Assembly (NCBI GenBank): GCA_964609495.1
Contig: CAZSTA010000008.1
Span: forward strand, 1 to 39,102
DNA length: 39,102 bases
Source of the DNA: an uncultured bacterium
GTDB taxonomy: Bacteria > CAZSTA01
Direction: 5' to 3'
Position numbers and translations under genes: made by a program. Under the pieces are notes generated by a model. That model did not search any database. It saw nothing but the letters and a program-made list of their open reading frames with translations, and had not been told where the DNA came from. This document shows, in pieces, positions 6,924 through 39,102 of the stretch. The number at the start of each line of letters is the position of its first letter. Position 1 is the first letter of the stretch.

Positions 6924-7693
6924 TTATCTTCGGATGGTTTGGCAGAGGGAGAGAAGAGGAGGCTTACTGATATATCCTTTATTATATCTTCCGCGGCGAC
7001 AGCTCTGACAAGTCCTGTTCCCGTATCTATCACGGAGACTCGCAGATCGATCACCACTCCTAGATCGGTCGCAGTTCCAAGTATTATCCCTCCGAAGTTC
7101 CCAATACTTTGCGCTATAGAAGGGTCGAATCCCTCGCCTTTCCTCAATAGAGCTATCTTCTTTCGCAGGTCCAACGACAGTTGACTCTCCCGTATCACCT
7201 GAATCTGAGGGAAATCGAGCAAATCGCTCGCCAATATCTGGGATACTAGATCGGTGAAGTTATTCTTCTCCCCCCGAGAGGTCACGAAATCAAGGACCAA
7301 AATTCTCCTGAAAGTGGGCTTAGCCATAACCTCATCGCCCACCTTTATGCTTTCCAGGGAATAACCCGCCAGAGGTTCAGCGATAGCCATCCTCTCTCCA
7401 GCCCATCTTATCCGAACCTCAGCACATTTCTCCCTTCTCTCCTCTACTCCTCGAAAGACCTCGCACTCCATCCCTTCCTTAATACCGGCGCCCTCCTTTA
7501 AATCGATGTAGATTCCCGAGGAGGATATGAGCTCCACCTCTCCTTTAAATAGAGAAAGTCCAGAATCCCAAATCTGCTGAGATAATTTTGCCACCGCAGG
7601 ATTGATCGAACTCACCCCAGTATCGGCAAGGGAGGAGTAGGGGAATAGAAGGATTATCAGTAGAGAGGATATCAATATAATATTACGCATCAT
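6881..7693 (-). CDS. Exported protein with FlgT-C-like and CsgG/TolB-N-like domains; probably the N-terminal part of a frameshifted gene
   Basis: Signal peptide ending SLA-D. IYIDLKEGAGIKEGMECEVFR...IKVGDEV suggests FlgT-C; ILVLDF...GGIILGT...LRVSVIDTGTGLV suggests CsgG/TolB-N. Confidence 0.7.
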   Translation of the reverse strand: MMRNIILISSLLIILLFPYSSLADTGVSSINPAVAKLSQQIWDSGLSLFKGEVELISSSGIYIDLKEGAGIKEGMECEVFRGVEERREKCAEVRIRWAGERMAIAEPLAGYSLESIKVGDEVMAKPTFRRILVLDFVTSRGEKNNFTDLVSQILASDLLDFPQIQVIRESQLSLDLRKKIALLRKGEGFDPSIAQSIGNFGGIILGTATDLGVVIDLRVSVIDTGTGLVRAVAAEDIIKDISVSLLFSPSAKPSEDKYMLKRRANSSTSV

Positions 7694-14801: not shown

Positions 14802-16133
14802 TTGATTAAGCTTAATAAATTTTTAGTATTAGTTTCACTAGGGAGCATACTATTTTTGGCTCTATTTGCGCTTGGTTGTGATTTAGATAAGTTAATAAAT
14901 CCAGAGGCCGATATTCGCTTAATAGCGATCAAGGATTCTTCGGGAGCTAATACGATATCCTCGGTAACTTCAGCGGAGGTAGCGACAGGGACTGATATGG
15001 TGCAGTTCGTCTTTGAGGCCAGACCAAATAGCATCGGGGCTACCTTAGATCGCTATCGAGTCGAATACTATGATGATCAAGGACGTGGAATAACCTCGCT
15101 CACCCGAGAGAGAAGCACTTCCGTTACTATCGGCCCCTCGATCGGGACCGATGACAAGGGGGATCCCATCATTGGTACTGGTAGCGTTTTGGTCGATATT
15201 GCCGACTCTACGGTGTTGAACTATGGTCGAGAGAATCTCCTGAGAGAGATAAGGACTGTTTTCATCTTCTCTGGAGTAGATACTAACGGACATCGAATAG
15301 ATAACATTACTGGCTCCATTCCTATCGTTTTCGTGGAATCTCCTCCTCTGGCTCCGAAATTAGTGAGTCCTGAAGATAACGCGGTAGTAGGAATCAATCC
15401 TATCTTCATTTGGAGCGCCTCTCAGATCGATCCCGAATATCTGGCAGGATATGTATTAGATATTTATACTGAAGAGGGAATTCTAATCCTTTCTGCGACG
15501 ATAGAGAAAGATATACTCAATTTCGCTACAGAGGAGGAATTTTTAGTTTATGGGCAGAGCTACAAGTGGAGAGTAGGAGCAGTTAGTAGCTTCAGTTATC
15601 CTACAACTTTCAGTGAATTTCGTCACTTCAGGGTCGCCGATGCGGTACCTATATTGGTAGATGTGGAGTTGTTGTCCCCCTCCGATGGAGCCAACTATAG
15701 AGGGGAAAGGCCGAGTCCAATTGACCCGCTGCTGGGGCAACAGCAATATTCCACTATCGATGTAGAGTTCGTCTGGAAGGTCACTGTTACGGGAACAGGA
15801 GCAGATCCCGGTAATCTGAGATATATATGGGAATTGAAGGAATGGAAAAGCAATTATCTGATGGCGAATAAAGAGGTAACTACCCTGAAATATATTTGGC
15901 ATCACGAAAATGGTTTCTGGGAGTATGTAGGTGGGGGCAGGAATGCTATAAAATGTGTTGAAGGCGATCCTATCTGCGACTGCGAGGGCGATCCTAATAA
16001 GAGGTGCGATGATCCCTCTAAAAATGTGGCTGCCCATTATTTCTATCTGGAGTGGAAGGTCAAGGCTATAGATGATAATAATAATATAGTGGGAGTGAGC
16101 CCTGCTTATAAACTAACGGTTGCGATGCCTTAG
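14802..16133 (+). CDS. Hypothetical lipoprotein with Ig/FN3-like beta domains and a Cys-containing C-terminal insert
   Basis: Lipobox FALGC; APKLVSPEDN...PIFIWS...YKWRVGAV and VELLSPSDGA...FVWKV...WKVKAID modules; four Cys in CVEGDPICDCEGDPNKRC. Confidence 0.75.
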   Translation: MIKLNKFLVLVSLGSILFLALFALGCDLDKLINPEADIRLIAIKDSSGANTISSVTSAEVATGTDMVQFVFEARPNSIGATLDRYRVEYYDDQGRGITSLTRERSTSVTIGPSIGTDDKGDPIIGTGSVLVDIADSTVLNYGRENLLREIRTVFIFSGVDTNGHRIDNITGSIPIVFVESPPLAPKLVSPEDNAVVGINPIFIWSASQIDPEYLAGYVLDIYTEEGILILSATIEKDILNFATEEEFLVYGQSYKWRVGAVSSFSYPTTFSEFRHFRVADAVPILVDVELLSPSDGANYRGERPSPIDPLLGQQQYSTIDVEFVWKVTVTGTGADPGNLRYIWELKEWKSNYLMANKEVTTLKYIWHHENGFWEYVGGGRNAIKCVEGDPICDCEGDPNKRCDDPSKNVAAHYFYLEWKVKAIDDNNNIVGVSPAYKLTVAMP

Positions 16134-16154
16134 AAATTTGAGCGAGGAGACCTT

Positions 16155-17183
16155 ATGAATGAACATTTGAAGATCATAATCTTCATACTCTTAGGAATTG
16201 CCTTGATATTCGGTGGATGCGAGGAAGAAGAAGAACCGACCCCTACCCCTAGCCCAAGCACTATATCAGGGACAGTTAAGGACAAGGGGACGGATGAGCC
16301 CTTAGTTTCTGCAAAAGTGGTGATAATTGGATCCACTATGGAGGCAACTACCGATGATGAAGGTAAATATATATTCTCCACCGTATCGGCTGGTACTTAT
16401 ACTTTAGAGGCTAGATACGAGGGATATAAATCTGGGGTTCGAATCGTTCCCATATCTAAGGAAACTGATGTCCTTGACCAAGATTTTTATCTAACTGATA
16501 CGGAAGAGATAAAGGTCTTCCAGAACGGGTATTACCCGGATGACAAATATAAGGGGAGCAGTGCTGTCCACATCCTTTCTGCTAAGAGTGATACTAACTA
16601 TTCAGGGAGGGAATCGTTTTGGGTGGGGGAGTTTTCAACCTCTATTATTCCCCTGGATGAATATCGGGTGGGAATAAAAAAGATAATTCCGCTTGAGGAA
16701 TTGAAACAATATCGAGGCTTAGTCAAGTTCGATCTAAGTAGGATTCCCTCCTCGCCACCCAAGAAGGTTCTCTCAGCAACTCTTTTTCTCAAAGTTGCTG
16801 ATTTTATTGGTTCAAGCTCTGATTTGATTCTAAAACTGCACAAGATCACTAGATCGTGGCAGACCGAAAGTGTTACTTGGAATACCTATGATGGGAGTAA
16901 TAAATGGACTACTCCCGGAGGTGATTTTCTAAGTGAGCCGCTGACTTCACCTCATCTTCCCGTGGGCCCGAGCGATGTTGGTCGCTGGTTACAGTGGGAG
17001 TTACCACCCTCCGTAGTCGAGGATTGGATAAATGGTTCATCCTCCAATTATGGATTCATAATCCTAGCCAAGCGGGAGGAGGGTGGGGCTGCCCTAGATG
17101 AAGGGATCGCCTTCAAAAGCGATAGTTACCCCTATTCAGCCTCGGAGAGGCCAAAATTAGTGATAAGGTTCTATGAGCCGTAG
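16155..17183 (+). CDS. Lipoprotein with carboxypeptidase-regulatory-like and DNRLRE/CBM96-like domains
   Basis: Lipobox IFGGC; TISGTVKD...TTDDEGKYIF...GTYTLEA; RGLVKFDLSRIP...SATLFL...VTWN...WTTPGGDF...NYGFII...RPKLVI; RBS GAGGAG. Confidence 0.82.
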   Translation: MNEHLKIIIFILLGIALIFGGCEEEEEPTPTPSPSTISGTVKDKGTDEPLVSAKVVIIGSTMEATTDDEGKYIFSTVSAGTYTLEARYEGYKSGVRIVPISKETDVLDQDFYLTDTEEIKVFQNGYYPDDKYKGSSAVHILSAKSDTNYSGRESFWVGEFSTSIIPLDEYRVGIKKIIPLEELKQYRGLVKFDLSRIPSSPPKKVLSATLFLKVADFIGSSSDLILKLHKITRSWQTESVTWNTYDGSNKWTTPGGDFLSEPLTSPHLPVGPSDVGRWLQWELPPSVVEDWINGSSSNYGFIILAKREEGGAALDEGIAFKSDSYPYSASERPKLVIRFYEP

Positions 17184-18084
17184 AAATTGGTTAATTGGTA
17201 TAAGTTCGATTGTCTTTCTTCTGTTATATACCTCCTATGTCCATTCCAGCGAGGTTGACCATTGGCAAAGAGGTATAGACTATTACGATAAGGGCAACTA
17301 TAAAAGAGCTCAAAGGGAATTCGAGGTTGCCCTATTGCAGAATCCGTCTAGCCCTTCCCTTCTCACCTACTTAGGGCTGGCGAACTATAAGCAAGACGAG
17401 ATCGACAAAGCCATCGCGATCTTTAATAGGGCTTTAGCGATAGATCCCGATTATATCTGGGCTCTGAACGCCAGAGGATATATGCATCAGTTGAAGGGAG
17501 ATTTTCATAACGCCTCGACCGATTATCACCGGGCGCTTCAGATCTTTCCTGAATTCCTCGGTGCCCGAATCAACTTGGCTGATCTTTTCAGGAGACAAGG
17601 CCGCTTCAAGAAAGCCCTGGAAAATTACGAGATAGCTTTGAAGATCAAGCCCGATGAAATATATATCCTTAATTGGATGGGGATAATCTATTCCATACTA
17701 GGAGACTATCCCCGAGCGGAAGAAACCTTCAAAGAGATAATCGAGATCAACCAGGTCAGCATCGAGGCCATCCTCGCTGAGAGGTTGAAGGGACATATCC
17801 TCTCCTCAGAGTATATGAATAGCAGAGAAGAAGATCAAGCAGATAGATCCAGAAAAGAGGGGAACATAGATAGAGCGATCGAGGAGTATAAGAGGAGGAT
17901 AGCCCAAAACGAGAAAGACGCAGATGCATACTTTTGGCTCGGCTTGATCTATGCAGTTCAGGAGATAAATGATGAGGCCATCCTTCACCTTAACCGAGTG
18001 ATAGAGTTGCAACCTCGAGGTCAGGATGTCCCATTTATAAAAGATCTAATAATATTCATTCGTATAGCTGAGAAATTCGGCTAA
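17173..18084 (+). CDS. Exported tetratricopeptide repeat protein
   Basis: Signal peptide and several TPR units (LGLANYKQDEIDKAIAIFNRALAIDP, AYFWLGLIY...VIELQP). Confidence 0.88.
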   Translation: MSRRNWLIGISSIVFLLLYTSYVHSSEVDHWQRGIDYYDKGNYKRAQREFEVALLQNPSSPSLLTYLGLANYKQDEIDKAIAIFNRALAIDPDYIWALNARGYMHQLKGDFHNASTDYHRALQIFPEFLGARINLADLFRRQGRFKKALENYEIALKIKPDEIYILNWMGIIYSILGDYPRAEETFKEIIEINQVSIEAILAERLKGHILSSEYMNSREEDQADRSRKEGNIDRAIEEYKRRIAQNEKDADAYFWLGLIYAVQEINDEAILHLNRVIELQPRGQDVPFIKDLIIFIRIAEKFG

Positions 18085-18094
18085 ATTATCAAAT

Positions 18095-18119
18095 ATAGGA
18101 GGGGAGGATTCCTCTCCCT
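18095..18119 (+). repeat. 33-bp palindromic element, internally deleted intergenic copy
   Basis: ATAGGAGGGGAGGATTCCTCTCCCT, with the same AAAT left flank as the 8685 copy. Confidence 0.7.
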
Positions 18120-18158
18120 CCGGCAAAAGTTTCCTAATTGAAAAGTGGGTGATGGAAA

Positions 18159-19823
18159 ATGGGTAATATTATCTATGAGACCACCCTGAGAGAGATGGCC
18201 AATGTTGTGCCTCGTAGGGCCGCGGCGACTCTCCTAGAGGAAGGAGTGGATGGCATATCCACCAGTCCTGACGAAGTTCGTTATAGTCAGATGGTCGAGA
18301 TCCTTAAGGGCTATATTTATAAGAGAATGCAAGTCCTTATGCCTCCCTCGTCGGCTAAAAAGTCCATCCAGATGGTATTGGATAAGATAAAAAGTCTCGA
18401 GAAACTTCCCTCTATTGAAATAGGAGGGGTAGAGGAGAAGATTCCTCCTATCGAGGAAGAAGGAGAGCCTTCGTCTATCGAAACTACTGAGGAAGAGAGG
18501 ACGATTATCCAGGCAAGAGAATCTATAACTCCGCAACCCGAGACTCCCGAGTCGGAAGGAGGATTCGGCGGATTCAAATTAGGAGATTTGGGGGAAGATG
18601 CCCTAGCCAAACAGCTTGAGGCGGAGGGATATAACCCCGGGGAAATAGAGGCTATGCTTGGGGGACAGCAACCGACGGAGCCGCCTCCTGCTCAGGTAGG
18701 AGGTAGAGATGAGATAGACGAGGCTTTCGCGGGTATTATGTTAGGTGAGGAAGAGGAGGATGAAGAGTGGCAGATAGCCTCTGCTGAAGAAGGAGAGGAA
18801 GCTTTAGTGGGCGCCTCTGATACCGGCGATGAGGACCTCAGTGATATCCTGACTTCTATAGAGGAGACTCCTCTCCAAAGTATGCGAGATGTGGAGGAGA
18901 TTGAGACCATATCTCCTGACGAATTGCGAGCTGAAGGGGAGATCTTTGCCAAGTTAAAAATGAGGGTAGGGCGTCAAGTGAGCAAAGTAGGTGAAGATGA
19001 GAGGTTCATAGGGGATTTGAAGAAATTGATATCCAGTATATCAGCAAAACATAATATTGGATATAGTGCTGAAGAGGAACTCAATAAAGCTGGGGAATTA
19101 ATGGAGAGATGGGAGAAAGAAATACGAGAGGCGGAAGAGGAGAGAATCCCTGCTCCTACTGAGGCGGAAGAGCCTGCAGTCGCGATTACCGAGGAGAGGG
19201 CGGAACAAGGGAAGAGGCTCGAAAAGTTAGAGGAGACTTTCTCTAGTTATCAAGACGAGCCCTTGAGTGAGATCAACGAGTTCTCGATGTTGCTGGAAAT
19301 AGTCAAACAGAGATATTCTGCCGGGGAGGATATCACAAGTGCTTTAAACACTCTGGAGGAGTCTCTAGAGAAGATCAGAGATAAGGTCAAAGCCGGGGAA
19401 GAGGTTCCCCTTGAAAAAATAGGAGGGGTAGAGGAGAGGATCCCTCCTCCTATTGAGAAAGAGATCCCTGAGACTGCCCCCGTGGATGCCACAGCTCTGC
19501 TCGACTATATAGCCTCTTGGGAGAATGTTCAGAAAGTCGCATTAGTAAGCCACCAGGGCGATATAGAGAAGGAAAGCTTCTCTCCCTTCCAGATCGATCT
19601 TACGGCTTTAGTGCCTCCTGCGGAGAGGCTTGTTACTTTCCTTAAAAGCAAAGCTAAGAGAGATTGGCGCGCTCTAAACCAAGCCACTTTGATCTTCGAG
19701 GAGGGGGATATCTTCCTAGTTCCCACCTCCGATGAAAACTTCCTGCTCTTAATAACTTCTGCTGAATTCAACATAGGGAAAGCTATGATTAAGATAAGAA
19801 GATGGCTATCTGCAAGGTGTTAG
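18159..19823 (+). CDS. Acidic cytoplasmic protein with a C-terminal roadblock/LC7 (MglB-like) domain
   Basis: C-terminal ~115 aa (NVQKVALVSHQGDI...ATLIFEEGDIFLVP...FLLLITSAEFNIGKAMIKIR) follow the roadblock pattern; long Glu-rich linker; helical N-terminal domain. Confidence 0.7.
   Translation: MGNIIYETTLREMANVVPRRAAATLLEEGVDGISTSPDEVRYSQMVEILKGYIYKRMQVLMPPSSAKKSIQMVLDKIKSLEKLPSIEIGGVEEKIPPIEEEGEPSSIETTEEERTIIQARESITPQPETPESEGGFGGFKLGDLGEDALAKQLEAEGYNPGEIEAMLGGQQPTEPPPAQVGGRDEIDEAFAGIMLGEEEEDEEWQIASAEEGEEALVGASDTGDEDLSDILTSIEETPLQSMRDVEEIETISPDELRAEGEIFAKLKMRVGRQVSKVGEDERFIGDLKKLISSISAKHNIGYSAEEELNKAGELMERWEKEIREAEEERIPAPTEAEEPAVAITEERAEQGKRLEKLEETFSSYQDEPLSEINEFSMLLEIVKQRYSAGEDITSALNTLEESLEKIRDKVKAGEEVPLEKIGGVEERIPPPIEKEIPETAPVDATALLDYIASWENVQKVALVSHQGDIEKESFSPFQIDLTALVPPAERLVTFLKSKAKRDWRALNQATLIFEEGDIFLVPTSDENFLLLITSAEFNIGKAMIKIRRWLSARC
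18420..18449 (+). repeat. 33-bp palindromic element, in-frame copy inside a CDS (30 bp, IGGVEEKIPP)
   Basis: ATAGGAGGGGTAGAGGAGAAGATTCCTCCT at offset 261 from the ATG at 18159. Confidence 0.82.
19419..19451 (+). repeat. 33-bp palindromic element, in-frame copy inside a CDS (IGGVEERIPPP)
   Basis: ATAGGAGGGGTAGAGGAGAGGATCCCTCCTCCT at offset 1260 from the ATG at 18159. Confidence 0.85.
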
Positions 19824-19844
19824 GTAATAACTCCTATTCAAAAA

Positions 19845-19877
19845 ATAGGAGGGGTAGAGGGGAGGACCCCTCCCCCT
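19845..19877 (+). repeat. 33-bp palindromic element, intergenic copy
   Basis: ATAGGAGGGGTAGAGGGGAGGACCCCTCCCCCT; preceded by CTCCTATT (19831-19838), which can pair with its 5' end. Confidence 0.85.
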
Positions 19878-19899
19878 AAGGAAAGGAGAACGACTTATA

Positions 19900-21411
19900 A
19901 TGCTTAGACCGAAGGTATATCTTAGCTTGAGTTTAGGTATCATCCTCCTGACTTTGGTATATTCAGTCGAGGCGGCGGATCTAGCGGACACGGTCAAAGA
20001 ATTAAAGGGACATCTACAGGCCTCGATCTCAGCTCTGGATAAGGGTGAGACGGATAATGCTTTAGGAAACATCGATAAGGCTCAACAAGTTTATCAAAGC
20101 CAGTTACTCAATTTCGTAAACCGATATACTGAAGGCGTAAATGAGGCAATTTTAAATTATTTTCAGATGTCAAAGGATTTCATCAAAGAGGGGCGAAGAG
20201 TGTCCCTATCTGCCGAGATCGAAAAAATTGAGGGATCCTTACTATTAACCTTTCATCGAGCTTTCTTTGCCTCTCTACAAGGAGAGGATAAGAGCGAGGC
20301 TAATACCTACTTCGCTCTTCTGGTAGATAGGATAAAGGATTATCCCGAGGCGATTAATGGTATTAGAGAGGAGTTGAGGGCTCCTGCTCCCTATGTGGAT
20401 AAGATAAGAGCTCTTCTAAATGGCGCTTTAGCCTCTGAGTCCGAGACAGCTTTGAGGGATTCTCTGGAGTTACTGGCTCAGGATAGGGGGAGAGCTTATT
20501 TAAAGGCAGTAACCTCTATGTACCTTTATTGGATCATAAAGGATGATATTAAGGTTATGATGGGAACTAGTCAGGAGAAGCCGCTATCATCCTTCATTAA
20601 AGCAATCGTAGCCTCGGATAAGGAACAAGCGGATTCTCTGGCCAATTCTATAATCCAAGGTTTCGCTCGATATAAGGGAGAGGCCGCTAGGGCTGCCCAA
20701 CTTGAACCACCGCCTGCTACCTCGACTGGAACTGAGCTAACATCAGCTCAGTTGGAGGAATTAGCCGCCAAAGAAGAAGAGCTAGCTCAAGTTAGACAGC
20801 AAATAAATAGCTTTAGGGCGACTAATCTTGAATTAACTCAGGATATCCAGCAGTTGAGAAAAGATAATCAGGAATTGAGGGAGGAGAATGAGCAACTAAC
20901 CAAATCTACTTCTGCAGGGGCTTCGTTCTTCTGGCCTATTGACGAATCTATAGGTAGTTTATGGGCCCAATATAAGGGGTATATCTTCATATTATTGGCT
21001 ATAATTTTGATCTTATTGCCCCTTAGATATTCCACCTTAGCTTTTGGTGGCACCAATCCCAATCCAGCTTGGCAGAAGGTAGGGCAGTTCATCTTACTTC
21101 TGACTCTGCCGATCTTTATGTTAGGGATAGCATATCTCATTTCAGGTTTGCTACAAGTTGTAGGGACGTTTGTTCCCTCCCTAAAGGATTTTCAGCAAAT
21201 CCCTCTTTCTATATTCGATGTTTTCAGGGGAACTGTTGCCCAGATCCTATGGGTTATAGGGGTTTTAGCCGCGGTCTTTGTCGGAACTGCTGGACTTAGA
21301 GATATCTGTGCCCAATTTGGCTTATCTCCAGCGAGAGGCGCCGTCGCTACAGTGTCGGATGTTGCGGCTGAGTGGGAAGAAGAGGAAGAAGAGGAATGGG
21401 ATATAGAGTGA
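19900..21411 (+). CDS. Hypothetical membrane protein: signal peptide, helical exported domain, coiled coil, ~3 C-terminal TM helices, acidic tail
   Basis: Signal ending VEA-A; heptads LAQVRQQINSFRATNLELTQDIQQLRKDNQELREENEQL; three hydrophobic segments; tail EEEEEEWDIE; RBS AAGGAG. Confidence 0.78.
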   Translation: MLRPKVYLSLSLGIILLTLVYSVEAADLADTVKELKGHLQASISALDKGETDNALGNIDKAQQVYQSQLLNFVNRYTEGVNEAILNYFQMSKDFIKEGRRVSLSAEIEKIEGSLLLTFHRAFFASLQGEDKSEANTYFALLVDRIKDYPEAINGIREELRAPAPYVDKIRALLNGALASESETALRDSLELLAQDRGRAYLKAVTSMYLYWIIKDDIKVMMGTSQEKPLSSFIKAIVASDKEQADSLANSIIQGFARYKGEAARAAQLEPPPATSTGTELTSAQLEELAAKEEELAQVRQQINSFRATNLELTQDIQQLRKDNQELREENEQLTKSTSAGASFFWPIDESIGSLWAQYKGYIFILLAIILILLPLRYSTLAFGGTNPNPAWQKVGQFILLLTLPIFMLGIAYLISGLLQVVGTFVPSLKDFQQIPLSIFDVFRGTVAQILWVIGVLAAVFVGTAGLRDICAQFGLSPARGAVATVSDVAAEWEEEEEEEWDIE

Positions 21412-21464
21412 TAAAAGGGAACTTTTGCAGGCAATAGGACTCAAGGTAAAAAAGTTCCCTTTTT
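21412..21464. terminator. Long stem-loop (15-bp perfect inverted repeat, 23-nt loop); possible terminator or processing site
   Basis: TAAAAGGGAACTTTT (21412-21426) and AAAAGTTCCCTTTTA (21450-21464), directly after the stop codon. Confidence 0.55.
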
Positions 21465-21486
21465 AGAGGAGGCAAGTTAGGACATT

Positions 21487-22035
21487 GTGGAAATAGAATA
21501 TAGGAGGGGTGGAGGGGAGGATTCCTCCCCCTATAGCGAGGTTGAAAAAGAGATATGTTTAGAAGAGTTAATTATCGCTCCGATGCGGATATCCGATTTA
21601 GGTGAGTGTATGATCATCGAGAGAGCTTCTTTTTCTACTCCCTGGCCTCGCTTTTTCTTTATAGGGCAACTTTTAATTGGAAGATCTTGTTATCTAGTTG
21701 CCAGATTATCCGGTAGGATCGTTGGATATATTGGAGGGACGTTCGGTAGGAATGGGGGCCACATCGCTAATCTTGCGGTCCATCCCTCCTTCAGGAGAAG
21801 AGGTATAGGAGAGAGGTTACTACTTGCTATGTTCTCCGAAGCTATATCTCGTTCGGCTCGTCGTCTCACCTTGGAGGTGAGACGAACAAATTTGATCGCT
21901 CAAGAGCTATATGAGAAATATGGTTTTCGGAAGATCGATGTATATAAGGGCTACTATCATGATACGGGAGAGGATGCGTTCTTAATGATGGTAGATTTGA
22001 CCCACTATAAGAAGGCTGAAGAATTAAAGTCATAG
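21487..22035 (+). CDS. rimI: Ribosomal protein alanine N-acetyltransferase (GNAT)
   Basis: IERASFSTPW, HIANLAVHPSFRRRGIG, LTLEVRRTN, LYEKYGF, YYHDTGEDA. The start codon is uncertain. Confidence 0.88.
   Translation: MEIEYRRGGGEDSSPYSEVEKEICLEELIIAPMRISDLGECMIIERASFSTPWPRFFFIGQLLIGRSCYLVARLSGRIVGYIGGTFGRNGGHIANLAVHPSFRRRGIGERLLLAMFSEAISRSARRLTLEVRRTNLIAQELYEKYGFRKIDVYKGYYHDTGEDAFLMMVDLTHYKKAEELKS
21500..21532 (+). repeat. 33-bp palindromic element within the predicted rimI N-terminal extension (read as YRRGGGEDSSPY)
   Basis: ATAGGAGGGGTGGAGGGGAGGATTCCTCCCCCT followed by ATAG, a direct repeat of its first four bases. Confidence 0.85.
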
Positions 22036-22039
22036 GGAG

Positions 22040-24223
22040 ATGATCCTGTTGAAAAGAGCCAAAAGGATATACTTATCGATCTTGATCTTATCTATAATAC
22101 TAGTAAGTTTATCTCCTGCCAGGGCTCAGGAGGAGAAGCTGGAGATCTTCAAATCTGCCCAGATGCTCATCGAAGAAGAGGATTACGAGGTCGCGATCGC
22201 TAAACTCTTAGCATATATCGATACCGAGCCGGGGGAGGCTAATAAAGCCAAGGCCTTCTACTGGATAGGGCAAGCCTATGAGGGATTAGGAAGATGGACT
22301 CAGGCAGTAGGTGCTTATGAGAGAGCGTTACGGATGAGTAGAAGGGTTGTTGAGTCGGTATATGCCAAGGATAGAATAAGCTATATTAAGGGCAATTACC
22401 CGATCGATTATGGACCCCTCTTCGTCCTCTCCACTCCGAAGAGGGCGGATGTTTTCATAGGTGGGGAGGAGAGGGGAAAGACACCGCTCTTCCTCTTTCA
22501 ATCCGATGAACTCATCGTTGGAGAACATCTGCTTGAGGTGGTTATGAATGGCTATGAAGGGTGGAGTGATATTATAAACACCAAAATCGAAGAGACGGTG
22601 ATTATAGAGGTTGAGCTAAAACCTCTATGGGCTACTTTCTATTCCGTTCCTGAATCTGCCACGCTGTTCATAGATGGAAGGTTGTTAGGAATAACTCCGG
22701 TGATGGTCTCATTAGCTGATGAATCCTGGTGGGGGACTCACGAATTGAGGATAGCGAAGGAAGGGTATAGAGACTGGAGGAGCGAGGTAACCCTCACCGG
22801 AGAAACCTCTGTTGAGATCACAGGCGAATTGGAGTTAATACCTATAGTCTATGTGAGATCTATCCCCTCTCCTGCCCAATTATACCTCGATGGAAAGTTA
22901 TTAGGAGAGACCCCTCTTTCTCTCGCCCTAGTTGATAAGTCCTTGGAGGGAGTTCACCATTTGAAAGTGGTTAAAGAAGGTTATGAGGAATGGGAGGAGG
23001 AGGTAGTATTAGGGGAGGAACACGAATTATCCCTACAAGTCAAATTGAGAAAGGTCTTCGAACTCTCCGAGGTAGGTATAGAAAATTTCCTGCCTCCTGA
23101 GGGAAGGATCGATCGAGTGTTGATGGCTGATACAGATGATGATCGAACTGACGAGGTCATCATCGCTTATAGGACCAGAGATGCTGATGGGGAGTATCGG
23201 GATGGTCGCCTGATGATTATAGGTTGGAGCCATCAGAAACAAGAATTCGTTGAAAAGTGGCAGAGCATCGAATCCTTGGGAGATTACACCTTGGCGATGT
23301 TGGAGATAGGGGACATCAATGGAGATGGAAAGAATGATATTATAACTGGCACTAGTCCCTTGTTAAAGGTCCCGAAGATGTTCGTTTACACTTGGAATCC
23401 CCCATCCTATTATCTGCTGGAGAAGATAACTGAGGACCCATTCGCAACCCAGAGAGTATCTCCTAAACTTACCGCGGACATAGCGGATAAAGTGATCTCA
23501 GAAGATAGCGGTTTTGTGGTTTTGTATGTAAGAGTTGAGAATAAGGATACTAAGGAAGCCAGAAACGTGAAGCTCACTTTGGGGATATATGATGAGAATG
23601 GTGAGTTAATAAAGCAGATTCCTCGCTATATAGAGACGGTTAAGGGCAAGACAGGAGAAGAAAGAGCCTCCTCTCAGATTAAGATTGTAGTTCCTAATTA
23701 TCCCCATGCGGAATATAAAGTCGATAAGTTAGATTATGTGATGCAAGAGGAAAAAATTGACTTTATGGAAGCTAAGTATAAGTTAGATGAGAGAAGAAAT
23801 AGATTACTGGGGAGTTTAAATGGCAAATTGGAGGTGGCTAGAGAATCGTCTCAACCTGAGGAAAAAGTTGAGGTTGAATTGACCGGGGAGGAGAGAAAGG
23901 AAGCTTTGCTAACGGGGTTAGATCGAGTAAACGAGATGATAAGTCTCTGGCAGGAGGTCGAACTCGAGATAGACAATTTAGTTGACCTCTACGAAGATTA
24001 TATGGATCTGAGGAGCGATCTCCAATATGTCATTAACAAGGGGAAAACGCTTCCGGCTTTAGATGCTTATAATATGGATACCTACTCCGAGATAATAGGG
24101 GATTTGATGCGAGCGGAGATTAAGGCGCGTCGGGAGATAGAGGCTCATAGGGATGCTTTGGAGTTTCTGCGTCATGATCTAAGACAGGAATTGAAAGCGA
24201 TGGGGGTGTTAGGGGAGGATTAA
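22040..24223 (+). CDS. Exported multidomain protein: TPR, three PEGA domains, FG-GAP motifs, FxLYD-like beta domain, helical C-terminus
   Basis: Signal ending ARA-Q; AFYWIGQAY TPR; three SxPxxAxxxIDG...GxTP...HxLxxxKEGY units; GDINGDGKNDII; VRVENK...IYDENGELI. Confidence 0.82.
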   Translation: MILLKRAKRIYLSILILSIILVSLSPARAQEEKLEIFKSAQMLIEEEDYEVAIAKLLAYIDTEPGEANKAKAFYWIGQAYEGLGRWTQAVGAYERALRMSRRVVESVYAKDRISYIKGNYPIDYGPLFVLSTPKRADVFIGGEERGKTPLFLFQSDELIVGEHLLEVVMNGYEGWSDIINTKIEETVIIEVELKPLWATFYSVPESATLFIDGRLLGITPVMVSLADESWWGTHELRIAKEGYRDWRSEVTLTGETSVEITGELELIPIVYVRSIPSPAQLYLDGKLLGETPLSLALVDKSLEGVHHLKVVKEGYEEWEEEVVLGEEHELSLQVKLRKVFELSEVGIENFLPPEGRIDRVLMADTDDDRTDEVIIAYRTRDADGEYRDGRLMIIGWSHQKQEFVEKWQSIESLGDYTLAMLEIGDINGDGKNDIITGTSPLLKVPKMFVYTWNPPSYYLLEKITEDPFATQRVSPKLTADIADKVISEDSGFVVLYVRVENKDTKEARNVKLTLGIYDENGELIKQIPRYIETVKGKTGEERASSQIKIVVPNYPHAEYKVDKLDYVMQEEKIDFMEAKYKLDERRNRLLGSLNGKLEVARESSQPEEKVEVELTGEERKEALLTGLDRVNEMISLWQEVELEIDNLVDLYEDYMDLRSDLQYVINKGKTLPALDAYNMDTYSEIIGDLMRAEIKARREIEAHRDALEFLRHDLRQELKAMGVLGED

Positions 24224-34282: not shown

Positions 34283-34372
34283 CCAATCAGCTCTCCTTTC
34301 CGTATCCGGTAATATTTCGGATGGGACTTATCATATCGCTCCATCTCAATCCTAATCTGGAGTTACAATTAT

Positions 34373-34401
34373 ATTATAGCAAAGCGATATGTTTAAATCA
34401 A
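34373..34401 (-). promoter_or_regulatory. Sigma70 promoter (extended -10) for the CBS-NUDIX-AI-2E operon
   Basis: Minus strand TTGATT-N17-TATAAT with TGn before the -10 box. Confidence 0.7.
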
Positions 34402-34795
34402 CTTTTAAGAGAACGAATATTTGGAGAGGTGATGAAGATTATAAAGTCTCTACTTTGATACTTATTTTGAGAGCCATGAATTTCCGTAAGGTTTGTATTA
34501 CCCATACCCTCTATCCAAAAAATCCGCTTGGAAACCGAGTTTTCAGTTTAGCGTCCTCAAAAAATGCGAAACTATAGTTGTTATATTTCGTATAATATGC
34601 AAGAAAAACATATTTTAGCGAGGACATCTCGTATAGAATCGCAATCCTACTGATCTCGAGGGACTAGTTTGTTATTAGAAGTCTAATTAACTCTATAATT
34701 GGGTATATATATCACAAAATATATCAAGGAAGGTTCATAATCAATAAACACTCGGTTATTAGCACTAAACCTGTTATTTTTAGGAGGCATTTATT

Positions 34796-37700
34796 ATGTT
34801 TAAGAAACTAGGTTTGTCGATATTAATCTTCTTCCTTATATCGCCCCTCGTATTGTTTCTAGGAAGCAATATAGCTTATACTGGTGAGCTTGATCCAGCA
34901 CTTGTGGAAGAGCTTAATAATATCCAGCCGAAAGATAAGATCAGCGTTATAGTTTATATGAGAAGACAAGCGGATCTAAGAGGGATAAAAGGAGATCCTG
35001 CTGCTGTTATCAGAACGCTCCAATCCACCTCCAACCTCGACCAGGATGATATCAACACCTATTTGGAAGAGCAACAGAAGTTGGGGAATGTAGAGAAAAT
35101 CGAAAAATATTGGATCTTCAACGGGCTGGCTGTAACTGCTACTAAGGAGGTAATTGAAGAAATCGGGGTGAGAGCGGATGTAGAATGGGTTTTCAATGAT
35201 GAGCTTATCTCTATTCCTCCTGAGCCGGATCCTGCTCCTGATGAGATTCGGAGTGGAGCCGAATGGAACATCTCGAAGGTTCGGGCTCCTGAAGTCTGGG
35301 ATTTAGGATATGATGGTTCGGGAGTGGTAGTAGCTAATATCGATTCTGGGGTAGATTATACTCATCCAGATTTGGCCAGTAAATATCGTGGAGGGAGCAA
35401 TAGCTGGTATGATGCGGTAAATGGTCAGTCTAATCCTTATGACGATTATGGTCATGGGACGCACACGATGGGGACTATAGTAGGAGGGAATGCTGGTGGG
35501 TCGCATATAGGGGTAGCTCCTGGTGCTACCTGGATAGCAGCCAAAGCTTTGAATTCCGATGGGTCCGGCAGTAGCTTAGATATACTTTCATGTATGCAGT
35601 GGGTGATGGATCCCGATGGCGATCCTAATACTAGAGATGAACCCAAAGTAGTCAATAACTCCTGGGGAGGTAGTGGATGTAGTACTATATATCAAGCGAG
35701 CGTTCAGGCTTGGGTAGCCGCGGGAATCTTTCCTTGCTTCTCCATTGGCAATTCTGGCCCCACTCCAGGAAGCGCTGAACGCCCAGGGAATTACCCGGAG
35801 TCTTTCTCCGTTGGAGCAACTGATAGTTCTGATGTGATAGCATCTTTCAGCAGTCGAGGGCCATCTCCATGTAATGGTGAGATCAAGCCCGAGGTTAGCG
35901 CTCCCGGAGTTAATATCCTCTCATCGATTCCCGGAGGATATGGTTATAGTGATGGGACCTCTATGGCTGCTCCTCATGTTGCAGGAGGAGTGGCTCTCCT
36001 TCTTAGTGCTGATCCCAGCTTGAGCATAGATCAGCTCAAGCAACGTTTACAGGAAGGAGCTGTCGAGCTGGGCTCTCCGGGAGAGGATAATGATTATGGT
36101 TGGGGTCGTATCGATCTCTATAATTCACTTCCAGTTCCTCCTCCCTCCCCTCCCACTTTGCTTTCACCAACTAATGGTTCGACAACGAATGACAATACAC
36201 CAACCTTCGATTGGAGTGATGTGAGCGGAGCAGTTGAGTATCAGCTTCTAGTGGATAACAACAGCAATTTCAGTAGTCCAGAGATAGATATTACTACTTC
36301 TTCAAGCACCTATACTCCTACTGATGCCTTAGCTGATGATACCTACTATTGGAAAGTAAGAGCTAAGAATAGCTCTGGGATCTGGGGAGATTATAGCGGA
36401 ACTTGGTCCTTTACTATTGATACTCCATTACCCAATCCTCCCACTTTGATATCTCCTACTAATGGTTCAACGATATCTGATAATACCCCCGCTTTTGATT
36501 GGAGTGATGTGAGCGGAGCAGTTGAGTATCAGCTTCTAGTAGATAATGACAGCAATTTCAGTAGTCCAGAGATAGATATTACTACTTCTTCAAGCACTTA
36601 TACTCCTACTATTGCGTTAACTGATGGAACTTACTACTGGAAGGTGAAAGCGAAGGATGGCTCACTAAATTGGAGTGATTATAGCGATAGCTGGGACTTC
36701 ACAATAGATACTAGTAACCCTAACCCTACCCAGTATTGGGCGGTGATCGCGGGAATATCTGTCTATCAATATATAAACAATCTCGAATATTGCGATGATG
36801 ATGCTCAAGATATCTATAACGCTCTTATCACCAAGGATAATTGGGATGCCAGCAGGATGAAGCTCCTCATCGATTCTGCCGCAAGCAAGTCGGGAATCCA
36901 GAACTGGATAAATTGGGCAGGGAGTCAGATGGACTCCAACGATGTATTCCTATTCACCTTCTCAGGACATGGCACAAATGGCACTGATATAGCTCCTATT
37001 GATGAAACTGATGGGCTGGATGAATATATCTGCCCCTATGATATGTCTTCTCTCAGTAGCGCGATAAGGGATGACGAGCTGAGCGATTGGTTGGGGGCTT
37101 TGCCAACTACGAATATAGCTGTTATTCTCGACACTTGTTATAGCGGCGGTCAGATTAAGATCGGGGACGCTAAAGATAAATTTACTATAAAGACCATTGC
37201 TGATTTGAAATCTAGAGTAGGTAAGGATGATGGCTTTGCTAAAGATCTAGATGACCTTCTAGGCTCGGTGGCTATCACCGCTTGCGATGATGATGAGTAT
37301 TCCTATGAAAGTAGTGGACTTGGGAACGGGGTCTTCTGCTACTATGTAATTGAGGGATTAGAAGGGGAGGCTGATTCTAACAGCGATAATCAGATTAGTG
37401 TTGAGGAAGTTTTCGATTATGCGGATCCTTTAACTAGGGCTTACGCGCCTCAGAATCCCCAGATCTCTGATCGATACCCCGGAGAATTGGTCATCTCTAT
37501 TGGAGGTGGAGGTGTAAGCGATGCAATCGCTCGCGTGGAGATAGATCACACTTGGAGAGGGGATTTAGTCGTCAAGGTAGGAGTTGGTGATCCAGCTAGT
37601 CCTGATTGGGTGACAATCGTCTCCGATCGCGAAGGAGGATCTGCTGATAATATCTATACCGATGTCGATATCTTAGGTGGTTTAGCATACTTACCTCCTA

Positions 37701-39102
37701 GCCTTGCTAATCGCTGGTTCCTAGAGGTCTCCGATGAGGCATATCAGGATACAGGAACTATTCAAACTTTCAGGATAGAATATGAAGGTCAGGCTTATAT
37801 TTCCGATGATCCACCAGTTCCGATAGAAGATTATCAAACCTCGTATGCTTACATTCCTTCCGCGCAATATAGTTGGTATTTTGGACAGGGATATGGAGCG
37901 CCTGGCTGGCAAACTTATGTGATGATGGTTAATCCCCACGCCTATGTAGTGAACTACAACGCTACCTTCTACAAGGAGGGAGGAGGGACAGCAACTGACT
38001 CTGGAATTATCAATCCCTATGCTCGAAAGACGATACCTGCTCATCTCCTCCCTGGCTTGGGAGATGCCTTCTGTGCCAAGATAGAGACGAGTGGGCCGAT
38101 AGTAGCCGAGCAACCGATGTATTGGAATTGGAGTGGGGGATTCCCTCAAGGAGGACACACTACCATCGGAGCACCTGAGTTATCAGATACCTGGTATTTT
38201 GGAGCAGGATTTGCAGGAACAGGTTGGCAGACTTACCTAATGATGTCTAATCCTCATAACTATTCAGTGAGCTACACCGCTACCTTCTACAAGGAAGGAG
38301 GAGGAACAGCAACTGACGCTGGGACCATCAATCCCTATTCTCGAAAGACGATACCTGCTCATCTCCTCCCCGAATTGGTAGGTTATCCCTTCTCGGCGAA
38401 GATAGAGACGAGTGCGCCGATAGTAGCGGAGAGACCAATGTATTGGAACTGGAGTGGGGGCTTCCCACAAGGAGGACATACCACTATAGGAGCACCTGAA
38501 TTATCACAAACTTGGTATTTTGGACAGGGATTTGGAAAGAGTGGCTGGCAGACTTATGTGATGATGGTTAATCCCCACGATTATGAAGTGACCTATGATG
38601 CTTACTTCTACAAGGAGGGAGGAGGAACAGTAGAAGATCATGGAACTATCGCTCCCAATGCTCGAAAGACGATACCTGCTCATCTCCTCCCTGGCTTGGG
38701 AGATGCCTTCTGTGCCAAGATAGAGACGAGTGGGCCGATAGTAGCCGAGCAACCGATGTATTGGAATTGGAGTGGGGGATTCCCCCAAGGAGGACATACC
38801 ACCATCGGAGCACCTGAGTTATCAGATACCTGGTATTTTGGACAGGGCTATGGAGGGAGTGGCTGGCAAACCTATGTGATGATGACTAATCCCCATAGCT
38901 ATGCAGTGAACTACACTGCTTACTTCTACAAGGAGGGAGGAGGGACAGTAACTGACTCTGGGACCATCAATCCCAATGCTCGAAAGACGATACCTGCTCA
39001 TCTCCTCCCTGGCTTGGGAGATGCCTTCTGTGCCAAGATAGAGACGAGTGGGCCGATAGTAGCCGAGCAACCGATGTATTGGAATTGGAGTGGGGGATTC
39101 CC
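34796..39102 (+). CDS. Large secreted multidomain protease: S8 subtilase, two FN3-like, C14 caspase-like, P-like domain, tandem ~106-aa repeats (3'-truncated; absent from the ORF track)
   Basis: RBS AGGAGG at 34782 and ATG at 34796; manual translation found no stop before the window end. S8 triad IDSG (35342), HGTH (35453), GTSMA (Ser 35960); caspase dyad SGHG (His 36968) and DTC (Cys 37136); IDHTWRGDL; four WYFG repeats. Confidence 0.93.
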   Translation, partial: MFKKLGLSILIFFLISPLVLFLGSNIAYTGELDPALVEELNNIQPKDKISVIVYMRRQADLRGIKGDPAAVIRTLQSTSNLDQDDINTYLEEQQKLGNVEKIEKYWIFNGLAVTATKEVIEEIGVRADVEWVFNDELISIPPEPDPAPDEIRSGAEWNISKVRAPEVWDLGYDGSGVVVANIDSGVDYTHPDLASKYRGGSNSWYDAVNGQSNPYDDYGHGTHTMGTIVGGNAGGSHIGVAPGATWIAAKALNSDGSGSSLDILSCMQWVMDPDGDPNTRDEPKVVNNSWGGSGCSTIYQASVQAWVAAGIFPCFSIGNSGPTPGSAERPGNYPESFSVGATDSSDVIASFSSRGPSPCNGEIKPEVSAPGVNILSSIPGGYGYSDGTSMAAPHVAGGVALLLSADPSLSIDQLKQRLQEGAVELGSPGEDNDYGWGRIDLYNSLPVPPPSPPTLLSPTNGSTTNDNTPTFDWSDVSGAVEYQLLVDNNSNFSSPEIDITTSSSTYTPTDALADDTYYWKVRAKNSSGIWGDYSGTWSFTIDTPLPNPPTLISPTNGSTISDNTPAFDWSDVSGAVEYQLLVDNDSNFSSPEIDITTSSSTYTPTIALTDGTYYWKVKAKDGSLNWSDYSDSWDFTIDTSNPNPTQYWAVIAGISVYQYINNLEYCDDDAQDIYNALITKDNWDASRMKLLIDSAASKSGIQNWINWAGSQMDSNDVFLFTFSGHGTNGTDIAPIDETDGLDEYICPYDMSSLSSAIRDDELSDWLGALPTTNIAVILDTCYSGGQIKIGDAKDKFTIKTIADLKSRVGKDDGFAKDLDDLLGSVAITACDDDEYSYESSGLGNGVFCYYVIEGLEGEADSNSDNQISVEEVFDYADPLTRAYAPQNPQISDRYPGELVISIGGGGVSDAIARVEIDHTWRGDLVVKVGVGDPASPDWVTIVSDREGGSADNIYTDVDILGGLAYLPPSLANRWFLEVSDEAYQDTGTIQTFRIEYEGQAYISDDPPVPIEDYQTSYAYIPSAQYSWYFGQGYGAPGWQTYVMMVNPHAYVVNYNATFYKEGGGTATDSGIINPYARKTIPAHLLPGLGDAFCAKIETSGPIVAEQPMYWNWSGGFPQGGHTTIGAPELSDTWYFGAGFAGTGWQTYLMMSNPHNYSVSYTATFYKEGGGTATDAGTINPYSRKTIPAHLLPELVGYPFSAKIETSAPIVAERPMYWNWSGGFPQGGHTTIGAPELSQTWYFGQGFGKSGWQTYVMMVNPHDYEVTYDAYFYKEGGGTVEDHGTIAPNARKTIPAHLLPGLGDAFCAKIETSGPIVAEQPMYWNWSGGFPQGGHTTIGAPELSDTWYFGQGYGGSGWQTYVMMTNPHSYAVNYTAYFYKEGGGTVTDSGTINPNARKTIPAHLLPGLGDAFCAKIETSGPIVAEQPMYWNWSGGF
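36140..36712 (+). repeat. Two tandem 288-bp FN3/Ig-like domain repeats in the protease gene
   Basis: PPTLxSPTNGS...FDWSDVSGAVEYQLLVD...TYYWKV occurs twice; identical DNA blocks begin at 36209 and 36497. Confidence 0.9.
37874..39102 (+). repeat. Four tandem 318/321-bp coding repeats (DUF5719-like), the last cut by the window edge
   Basis: Units start at 37874, 38192, 38513 and 38831; consensus WYFGxG...WQTYxMMxNP...PIVAExPMYWNWSGGFPQGGHTTIGAPELS. Confidence 0.92.

Follow-up and report, generated by a model that had tools for sequence, protein, structure and literature searches.

A putative exported protein of an uncultured bacterium combining a subtilisin-type and a caspase-like protease domain with a tetrad of ASRT-fold repeats

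Analysis of a 39,102-nucleotide (nt) stretch of DNA from an uncultured bacterium (GTDB lineage Bacteria; CAZSTA01; assembly GCA_964609495.1, contig CAZSTA010000008.1, positions 1 to 39,102), referred to below as the window, revealed at its 3' end an open-ended gene whose product carries an intact subtilisin-type serine protease domain (S8) and an intact caspase-like cysteine protease domain (C14) on a single chain. The modules of the protein are known ones, shuffled from one protein to another, and the pairing of the two proteases is rare. The reading favoured here, with a probability of about 0.5, is that of an extracellular protease tethered to glycan, whose two active sites mature by themselves, independently of each other, and complement each other in specificity. 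The product would be a Sec-exported, multi-domain degradative protease, presumably carried beyond the inner membrane, in which the S8 domain would fold with the help of an N-terminal I9 propeptide and then remove it. The C14 domain would be a cysteine protease cutting after Arg or Lys, and its activation is probably autocatalytic, by cleavage of the Lys/Arg-rich loop behind its catalytic Cys. Both sites would attack the same extracellular proteins in parallel, with two Ig-like units as spacers between them, and a P-like domain together with four ASRT-fold repeats may bind glycan, either a cell-wall or envelope polysaccharide or a glycan of the substrate matrix, which would keep the enzyme where it is needed.

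The gene begins with an ATG codon preceded by a Shine-Dalgarno-like sequence (Table 1), and its frame, on the forward strand, extends over 1435 codons (34796-39100) with no stop before the window end; in an open reading frame (ORF) listing it shows up only when open-ended frames are requested. No N occurs in the window. A preliminary description of this DNA, made from the sequence, had reported an open-ended frame of at least 1435 codons, and the frame is indeed intact, with no stop or frameshift between domains. The codons that it had singled out for the two nucleophiles lie exactly where it had placed them, Ser389 (TCT) within GTSMA and Cys781 (TGT) within LDTCYSG, while the FSGHG motif begins at residue 722 and HTWRGDL at residue 918. 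The order of domains that it had given also stands; its label 'FN3-like' for the two units between the proteases does not, as these are Ig-like units matching Pfam Big_13 / Ig_Rha78A_N and not fn3.

At the N-terminus, MFKK is followed by an uncharged stretch of 19 residues with no Cys, which makes up a probable Sec signal peptide. With the I9 family (PF05922) the adjoining propeptide reaches 19.8 bits in a scan of the whole protein and 25.7 bits, above the cut-off of 21.2, in one restricted to residues 29-150; it is relatively rich in Lys and Arg (K/R, 9.8%). In the S8 family, the I9 propeptide assists folding and is then removed by the enzyme itself. The Peptidase_S8 family (PF00082) matches residues 174-437 with an E value of 1.9e-57 (195.2 bits, cut-off 21.8). 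Alignment with subtilisin BPN' (chain 2sni_E) sets IDSG, HGTH, AAGNEG and GTSMA of that enzyme opposite IDSG, HGTH, IGNSG and GTSMA of the window protein. In subtilisin, the catalytic triad of Asp, His and Ser and the oxyanion Asn lie within these motifs. The N-terminal export signal, the propeptide and an S8 domain that looks catalytically intact support the preliminary description.

The closest solved structures to the S8 domain are those of Tk-SP, a subtilisin-like protease of Thermococcus kodakarensis (3afg and 9ues, E ~1e-49), followed by subtilisins BPN', E and Carlsberg, and neither kexin nor furin is found among the solved-structure matches listed for it (60 and 25). Because its catalytic motifs align with those of subtilisin and its solved matches are Tk-SP and subtilisins, the domain is classified by sequence as subtilisin-type S8A, not kexin-type. 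The best full-length relatives are large secreted S8 proteins, many of them named bacillopeptidase F, and a C14 domain is listed in none of the best 120. Tk-SP, subtilisins BPN' and E and the bacillopeptidase-F-like subtilases share the propeptide and the catalytic domain with the window protein, with Asp, His, Asn and Ser aligned, and beta-sandwich domains likewise come after the catalytic domain. Compared with these multi-domain S8A subtilases, the window protein adds a second catalytic domain and the ASRT-fold tetrad.

This second domain is matched by Peptidase_C14 (PF00656) over residues 648-871 (E = 1.2e-16, 61.6 bits, cut-off 21.4). The NCBIfam model 'caspase, EACC1-associated type' (NF047832) gave 44 bits and did not reach its cut-off of 140, and nothing exceeded a curated cut-off in an NCBIfam scan of the whole protein. 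Sequence matches among solved structures were the metacaspases 7qp0, 6w8s and 4f6o and Geobacter GSU0716 (3bij). A structure predicted from 37 sequences had a mean predicted local distance difference test score (pLDDT) of 83.1, mostly above 90 in the C14 part, and a Foldseek search with it retrieved metacaspases 9 and 4, MALT1, GSU0716, Yca1 and TbMCA2, all with probability 1.00; the modelled domain has a caspase-like fold. The Pfam match, the FSGHG/LDTCYSG dyad and the modelled fold agree with the intact C14 domain described previously.

For comparison, 152 close C14 relatives were taken, being the stored proteins that match the window C14, and 148 domains were aligned, namely that of the window and 147 from 141 of the relatives, the 11 relatives without a stretch spanning both catalytic motifs being excluded. 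Motif regular expressions proved too strict for counting the dyad (both motifs in 109 of the 152), and alignment columns were counted instead. His725 is kept in 145 and Cys781 in 144 of the 148 domains, as are the acidic positions Asp669 (144) and Asp736, Glu737, Asp739, Asp742 and Glu743 (135-140 each). The acidic stretch of the window C14 aligns with DGDEEDGMDD of metacaspase chain 7qp0_A, and may include acidic residues that line the S1 pocket. Orthocaspases cleave after basic residues, according to the available part of one source (PMC6426788), and by analogy specificity for Arg or Lys would be expected of the window C14.

The Lys/Arg-rich loop lies between the two parts of this domain. 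Residues 785-820 contain 8 K/R in 36 positions (22%), compared with 2.5-3.5% in the flanking p20 and p10 parts, and the corresponding region of the model has low confidence, with block-mean pLDDT of 59-75 over model residues 141-180 and values below 50 for residues 146-150. The same pattern is seen across the 148 domains, in which the median K/R content is 13.3% in the loop and 4.0% elsewhere in the domain; the loop is the richer of the two in 143 domains, and at least twofold richer in 121. According to the available sections of a 2017 review (PMC5756287), the p20-p10 linker is where type II metacaspases are cleaved, and orthocaspases process themselves with no other activating step; for MaOC1, the only orthocaspase given as biochemically characterised, activity reportedly required p20 to be cleaved from the chain. 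By analogy with these enzymes, loop 785-820 is likely to be the self-activation site of the window C14. The basic loop is present whatever the neighbouring domains, and this speaks for a C14 domain that can do without the subtilase.

The window C14 shares its His-Cys dyad, acidic residues, fold and basic, cleavable-looking loop with MaOC1, GSU0716 (3bij), Yca1 (4f6o) and Arabidopsis MC4 and MC9. However, the characterised orthocaspases and metacaspases stand alone or are joined to intracellular signalling domains, whereas the window C14 is placed behind a subtilase on a predicted exported chain. Judged by its sequences, the clade to which it belongs looks extracellular: CARDB, PKD, FlgD_ig, Big_5, LTD, dockerin or similar domains are carried by 21 of 41 scanned relatives, and of the 137 relatives beginning with Met, 94 have an uncharged stretch at the N-terminus by a crude test. 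Extracellular protein degradation has been suggested for bacterial metacaspases in the accessible text of a further paper (PMC4933709). The only related locus in the genome collection (L001, 4214-13573) encodes a distant protein of 3119 amino acids (aa), 43% identical in the C14 part, in which C14 occupies residues 1936-2148 and is accompanied by four PKD domains and, at the C-terminus, a dockerin; its first ~1800 residues have no family assignment.

The P_proprotein-like domain behind C14 is a weaker match, PF01483 scoring 17.1 bits on the whole protein and a marginal 24.3 bits (cut-off 21) on residues 901-1014 scanned alone, but relatives of the domain carry PF01483 at E 1e-16. Its closest relatives, at 52-66% identity, are transglutaminase-elicitor-like proteins with several copies, M4 metallopeptidases and others, no S8 domain being listed for them, and the module seems to travel between unrelated protease families. 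P0017, the closest S8 relative, has a P-like stretch of 31% identity about 600 residues downstream of its S8 domain. Over its first ~120 aligned residues, the segment 37496-37860, which covers the P-like domain and linker, shows by eye ~60% identity to part of the M4 metallopeptidases P0156-P0161, which are named Thermoleophilia/Gaiellales; looser 'TWY...NP' repeats follow.

The preliminary description had read the position of the caspase as an insertion between an S8 domain and its own P domain. S8 with P_proprotein is a common bacterial architecture among Atlas neighbours (scores 0.77-0.82, which are leads only), and kexin/furin convertases (S8B) likewise combine S8 with an adjacent P_proprotein-type domain. 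The insertion is nevertheless not supported, given that the window S8 is of the subtilisin type, that the nearest relatives of the P-like domain are in non-S8 proteins, and that the P-like stretch of P0017 lies at such a distance from its S8. Membership of the kexin/furin group was rejected because the P-like domain (909-994) does not directly follow S8 (end at 437) but lies ~470 residues downstream, after two Ig-like units and C14, and because neither kexin nor furin is among the listed solved-structure matches.

The C-terminal repeats have a period of 318-321 nt (~106 residues), with three full copies and 91 residues of a fourth before the window end. In 92 relatives obtained from a large protein search, copies were counted with a hidden Markov model of the window repeats: exactly four are present in 75, and the last ends at most 21 residues from the C-terminus in 76. 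As four C-terminal copies are usual in relatives, the window protein is probably missing just ~15 residues; the 'four or more' repeats of the preliminary description are thus probably four, and the protein is probably little longer than its visible part. The window closes with 132 nt that exactly reproduce part of the third repeat (Table 1), so that the sequence most likely stops at an assembly break in the repeat array, of which this exact repeat is the probable cause.

A model of the tetrad predicted from 34 sequences had a pLDDT of 92.2 and a predicted TM score (pTM) of 0.91, with the four domains packed in a compact arrangement, and the sole meaningful Foldseek match was 1nc7 (Thermotoga TM1070; probability 1.00, target TM 0.81, root-mean-square deviation 1.8-1.9 A, 111 columns), so the modelled repeats have an ASRT-type beta-sandwich fold. 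By listed Pfam accessions, the tetrad follows S8 in seven of the 92 relatives, a pro-kumamolisin domain in six, M23 in four, and in one each the accessions that we take to be NlpC/P60 and Amidase_2. PF18986 (DUF5719) is listed for 61 of the 92, while the window repeats, scanned as a single repeat or all four, gave no match to PF18986 or PF07100 up to E = 1. The SHE..C..N signature of the stand-alone ASRT family was not visible by eye in the window repeats, and a literature search on DUF5719 found nothing. In the available part of the work of De Souza, Iyer and Aravind (PMC2739507), 1nc7 is the Thermotoga ASRT ortholog, the ASRAH (ASRT-homology) superfamily is predicted to bind sugars, and its secreted forms are dyads and tetrads. 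From the ASRT fold and this predicted sugar binding, a glycan-binding, retaining role of the tail is plausible, and with it the earlier suggestion that the repeats hold the protein on the surface.

Secreted ASRAH / DUF5719 tetrad proteins, including the S8-tetrads P0313, P0314, P0317, P0318, P0325 and P0336, carry the same four C-terminal ASRT-fold domains of ~100 residues on a secreted hydrolase. The window repeats differ from them in being unmatched by PF18986, in reading WYFGQG where the consensus of the relatives is WYFAEG, and in being far more alike, 77-89% identical to each other in aa sequence against a mean of 43.7% in the 75 four-copy relatives. Homogenised repeats are also found in three relatives, with mean identities of 72-81%. 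The high likeness of the four repeats suggests recent duplication, gene conversion or partial assembly collapse.

Table 1. Position of the open-ended gene and of its parts in the window; residue numbers refer to the encoded protein.
Feature	Position	Strand	Evidence
Shine-Dalgarno-like AGGAGG, 9 nt before ATG	34781..34786	+	read from upstream sequence
Open reading frame, open at 3' window end	34796..39102	+	ORF listing and translation
Probable Sec signal peptide, residues 1-28 (MFKK, uncharged stretch, SNIA; no lipobox Cys)	34796..34879	+	by eye and crude hydrophobic-stretch test
Inhibitor_I9 propeptide, residues 51-137	34946..35206	+	Pfam PF05922
S8A subtilisin-type catalytic domain, residues 174-437	35315..36106	+	Pfam, motifs, alignment to 2sni_E and 3afg
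S8 catalytic codons	Asp183 35342, His220 35453, Asn319 35750, Ser389 35960	+	motif positions
Ig-like unit 1 (Big_13 / Ig_Rha78A_N type), Pfam 463-540	36149..36424	+	direct repeat, Pfam
Ig-like unit 2 (Big_13 type), Pfam 559-639	36437..36712	+	direct repeat, Pfam
C14 metacaspase/orthocaspase-like domain, residues 643-900 (His725 36968, Cys781 37136)	36722..37495	+	Pfam, structure matches, model
Lys/Arg-rich loop after catalytic Cys, residues 785-820, candidate self-cleavage site	37148..37255	+	composition, model
P_proprotein-like beta-sandwich domain, residues 909-994	37520..37777	+	Pfam PF01483
Tetrad of ASRT-fold (ASRAH / DUF5719-related) repeats, residues 1015-1435, fourth cut by window end	37838..39100	+	
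132-nt window end, exact copy of 38653-38784 (third repeat)	38971..39102	+	sequence comparison

The combination of S8 and C14 on one chain was searched for in several collections. With the C14 and P-like region as query, PF00656 was present in 27 of 53 matches and PF00082 as well in two of the 27 (P0131 and P0135). An exhaustive C14 search against 1.84 billion cluster representatives returned 21,862 matches at E <= 1e-3, 321 of them at E <= 1e-30. Among the 152 close C14 relatives, second proteases, found by local phmmer with Pfam in agreement, were S8 in four (P0131, P0135, P0296, P0263), C10 in three, C1 in two and M4 in none, leaving 143 that carry neither S8 nor C1 nor C10. A cluster of 62 proteins called 'S8 family serine peptidase' in the ESM Atlas, mostly from Bacteroidota, has PF00082 in 100% and PF00656 in 97% of its members; its scores of 0.81 and 0.85 are leads only by the rating of the tool. 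The available part of a 2012 survey (PMC3501461) counts another proteolytic domain in 5 of 671 prokaryotic metacaspases, and its per-protein supplement, to the extent available, has Trypsin entries and no Peptidase_S8; S8 genes are mentioned four times in supplement file 2 as operon neighbours of metacaspase genes. Caspase or C14 is mentioned nowhere in a survey of serine-protease architectures (PMC2605481), and a full-text literature search for both Pfam names gave nothing relevant on the pairing. In public data the pairing is therefore rare, not unique, and undescribed as far as these searches reach, occurring in four of the 152 relatives and one cluster of 62 proteins.

The other proteins that combine S8 with a C14 of the same clade, namely P0131 (Candidatus Aerophobetes), P0135, P0296, P0263 and the 62-protein cluster, have the same order, with S8 N-terminal to C14. 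Their further domains differ from those of the window protein, being CARDB, a T9SS sorting domain, a beta-helix and fn3; P0135 has a fervidolysin-type prodomain, and P0131 is a partial record ending in a T9SS sorting domain. Neither the P-like domain nor the tetrad occurs in any of the S8+C14 proteins compared. Three other relatives have C14 behind a streptopain-type C10 domain with an I69 inhibitor domain (P0143, P0230, P0249) and two behind a papain-type C1 domain (P0148, P0281); these C10- and C1-fused proteins are very large, 1768-2165 aa.

Identities of both protease domains were compared across five S8+C14 proteins, the window protein included. P0017 and P0022, both of which lack C14, have S8 domains 61% identical to the window S8; in the four other S8+C14 proteins the S8 domains are only 26-33% identical to it. 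In their C14 domains, P0131, P0135, P0296 and P0263 are 55, 55, 43 and 40% identical to the window protein. Between the S8 domains of P0131 and P0135 the identity is 85%, and these two share 37% with the S8 of P0296 and 30% with that of P0263. With the window S8 nearest to C14-less proteins and distant from the other S8+C14 proteins, S8 and C14 are not a co-evolved pair, and the simplest reading of the sequences is domain shuffling, in which one extracellular C14 module would have come to stand behind S8 domains of at least four lineages, as well as behind C1 and C10. In general build the protein would resemble the gingipain polyproteins of Porphyromonas, long secreted chains in which a clan CD cysteine protease specific for Arg or Lys is combined with adhesin/binding domains, and the T9SS sorting domain of P0131 is a further point of likeness. 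Gingipains differ in belonging to family C25, not C14, and in having no serine protease on the chain.

Several considerations weigh against a glycan-tethered protease with two independent active sites. Activity, specificity, export and binding are all inferred from sequence. The Pro-rich inter-domain linkers contain no Arg or Lys, which fits parallel action, yet leaves no obvious C14 site for releasing the neighbouring domains. At 5.1%, the K/R content of the whole protein is low beside that of the 26 other ORFs of the window (median 11.8%, lowest value 8.0%), but this is not specific, since the medians of relatives are 4.2% for S8, 5.3% for C14, 5.4% for the P-like domain and 5.5% for the tetrad, with or without C14. 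Self-protection against C14 by low K/R content was considered and dropped, because relatives of every domain are equally K/R-poor without C14. LptA/LptC-type genes are present, and the LptA-type gene implies an outer membrane, so that the Sec signal alone would leave the protein in the periplasm. The C-terminus is missing, where a sorting signal is possible, the S8+C14 protein P0131 ending in such a domain. In addition, Pfam DUF5719 does not match the window repeats directly, and the sequence taken without reads is compatible with a join made by the assembler.

Such a join, of an S8 half and a C14 half of different genes at the Ig-like units, or a misassembly of the repeats, is considered very improbable. 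It would fit the 82% nucleotide identity of the two Ig-like units over 276 nt, the unusual likeness of the four C-terminal repeats, the exact repeat at the window end, and the fact that no identical or near-identical protein was found in the protein and genome-collection searches. However, the frame stays open over 4305 nt, the longest in-register exact run shared by the Ig-like units is just 49 nt, a four-copy repeat module is the norm among relatives (75 of 92), and three of these have similarly homogenised repeats. S8 and C14 also occur independently on one chain in four other proteins and in the 62-member cluster, which shows only that the architecture exists in nature, not that the join in the window is real. 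The GC content at third codon positions, 0.32-0.47 per domain with no clean break at the Ig-like units, is uninformative about a chimera.

Of the alternatives that accept the chain as real, a self-contained cascade, as put forward in the preliminary description, would have one protease domain activate or release the other, with S8 cutting the C14 loop, for instance, or C14 trimming the S8 propeptide, so that one domain would be active only after the other had acted. The presence of both domains on one chain speaks for it, as do the exposure of loop 785-820 in the predicted model and the relatively K/R-rich propeptide. Orthocaspase activity requires cleavage after the p20 part (PMC5756287, available sections), and the operon neighbourhood of S8 and metacaspase genes mentioned above (PMC3501461, available part) points the same way. 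In each of the 10 cases seen (five S8 including the window, three C10, two C1) C14 stands behind the second protease, but this placement is expected anyway because S8, C1 and C10 each need their own N-terminal propeptide. Moreover, the K/R-rich loop is kept throughout the clade (143 of 148 domains) although 143 of the 152 relatives have no partner protease, the window S8 is closest to S8 domains of C14-less proteins, and the S8 partners of the clade come from at least four lineages with a mutual identity of just 26-37%. The cascade is thus not shown, and is regarded as unlikely.

An equally doubtful alternative is that C14 serves as a built-in breakpoint, cutting its own loop after export to give an S8-Ig-Ig-p20 piece and a p10-P-tetrad piece, which would either be held together by the caspase fold or come apart, freeing the S8 'warhead' from its glycan anchor; the same would apply to C1 and C10. 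The recurrence of the module downstream of three protease families (9 of 152 relatives and the window) argues for it, as does the position of the K/R-rich, low-confidence loop exactly between the two halves of the fold, and clan CD also includes self-cleaving domains of large secreted proteins. Cleavage at this place is a known activation step in type II metacaspases and orthocaspases, but the halves of caspase-family proteins remain associated after cleavage, so that release of S8 is not expected (PMC5756287, available sections for both). In 143 of the 152 relatives there is no second protease to release, and in many C14 directly follows the signal peptide, with only binding domains behind it. 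A role at the cell's own envelope or against neighbouring cells rather than in feeding, such as surface-protein maturation, wall remodelling, or the fratricide or programmed death often considered for bacterial metacaspases, is likewise improbable. It would agree with the occurrence of the tetrad behind cell-wall hydrolases (M23, NlpC/P60 and Amidase_2 in four, one and one of the 92 relatives) and with a Sec signal that may leave the protein in the periplasm, and surface or fratricidal roles are raised for extracellular metacaspases in the available part of the 2012 survey (PMC3501461). Against it, the chain has no NACHT, TIR or other signalling or death-associated domain, the neighbouring genes are unrelated housekeeping genes, and the S8 domain is of the broad degradative subtilisin / bacillopeptidase-F type.

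The window is otherwise that of an ordinary bacterial chromosome, and nothing adjoining the gene is functionally linked to it. Its genes encode MutS2, a class A penicillin-binding protein (PBP1A), an LptA/LptC-like protein, Dus, type III pantothenate kinase, aldehyde:ferredoxin oxidoreductase, ferritin and peroxiredoxin, together with several exported proteins that match no family. The predicted aldehyde:ferredoxin oxidoreductase, LptA-like protein and PBP1A suggest that the host is an anaerobe with an outer membrane. Upstream of the gene lies an AT-rich gap of 513 nt (34283-34795), beyond which a divergent CBS-domain gene is found; a sigma-70 scan of the gap gave no site on the forward strand and four on the reverse strand against 2.6 expected, and a terminator-like hairpin is present at 34526-34540. 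Scans of the window for tRNA genes and Rfam families gave no match.

A run of same-strand genes on the forward strand (14802-24223) includes four with N-terminal hydrophobic stretches: 14802-16133 and 19900-21411, both without a Pfam match, 16155-17183 and 22040-24223. A lipobox-like Cys is present in 14802-16133 and 16155-17183. The run includes a protein with CarboxypepD_reg and disaggregatase repeats, a TPR protein, a GNAT acetyltransferase and a protein with three PEGA domains, as well as an ORF (18159-19823) with neither a family nor an N-terminal hydrophobic stretch. Two small adjoining ORFs lie on the reverse strand at 6015-7693, one (6015-6833) with an FG-GAP-like repeat and the other (6881-7693) with a signal-peptide-like start and no family.

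Bacterial caspase homologues have been discussed mostly in connection with cell death and signalling. The clade to which the C14 domain of this gene belongs is large and mostly unnamed, and is found in exported, adhesin-rich proteins, occasionally together with a second protease. With its intact dyad and triad, a chain of two proteases lends itself to testing the activity and the targets of extracellular orthocaspases and their cross-talk with a neighbouring protease, and the predicted glycan-binding ASRT-fold tetrad is now linked to proteases. The practical interest is modest, lying in protein turnover by uncultured anaerobes and possibly in a new secreted enzyme specific for Arg or Lys. More speculatively, the clade of extracellular orthocaspases may be a portable self-cutting joint for secreted 'warhead' proteases, an idea to which little probability is attached: cutting of its own loop would turn the protein into a two-piece, glycan-anchored protease complex, and might also set the moment at which the subtilase is freed from its anchor. 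If this were true, bacterial caspase homologues would acquire a defined extracellular job, unrelated to cell death.

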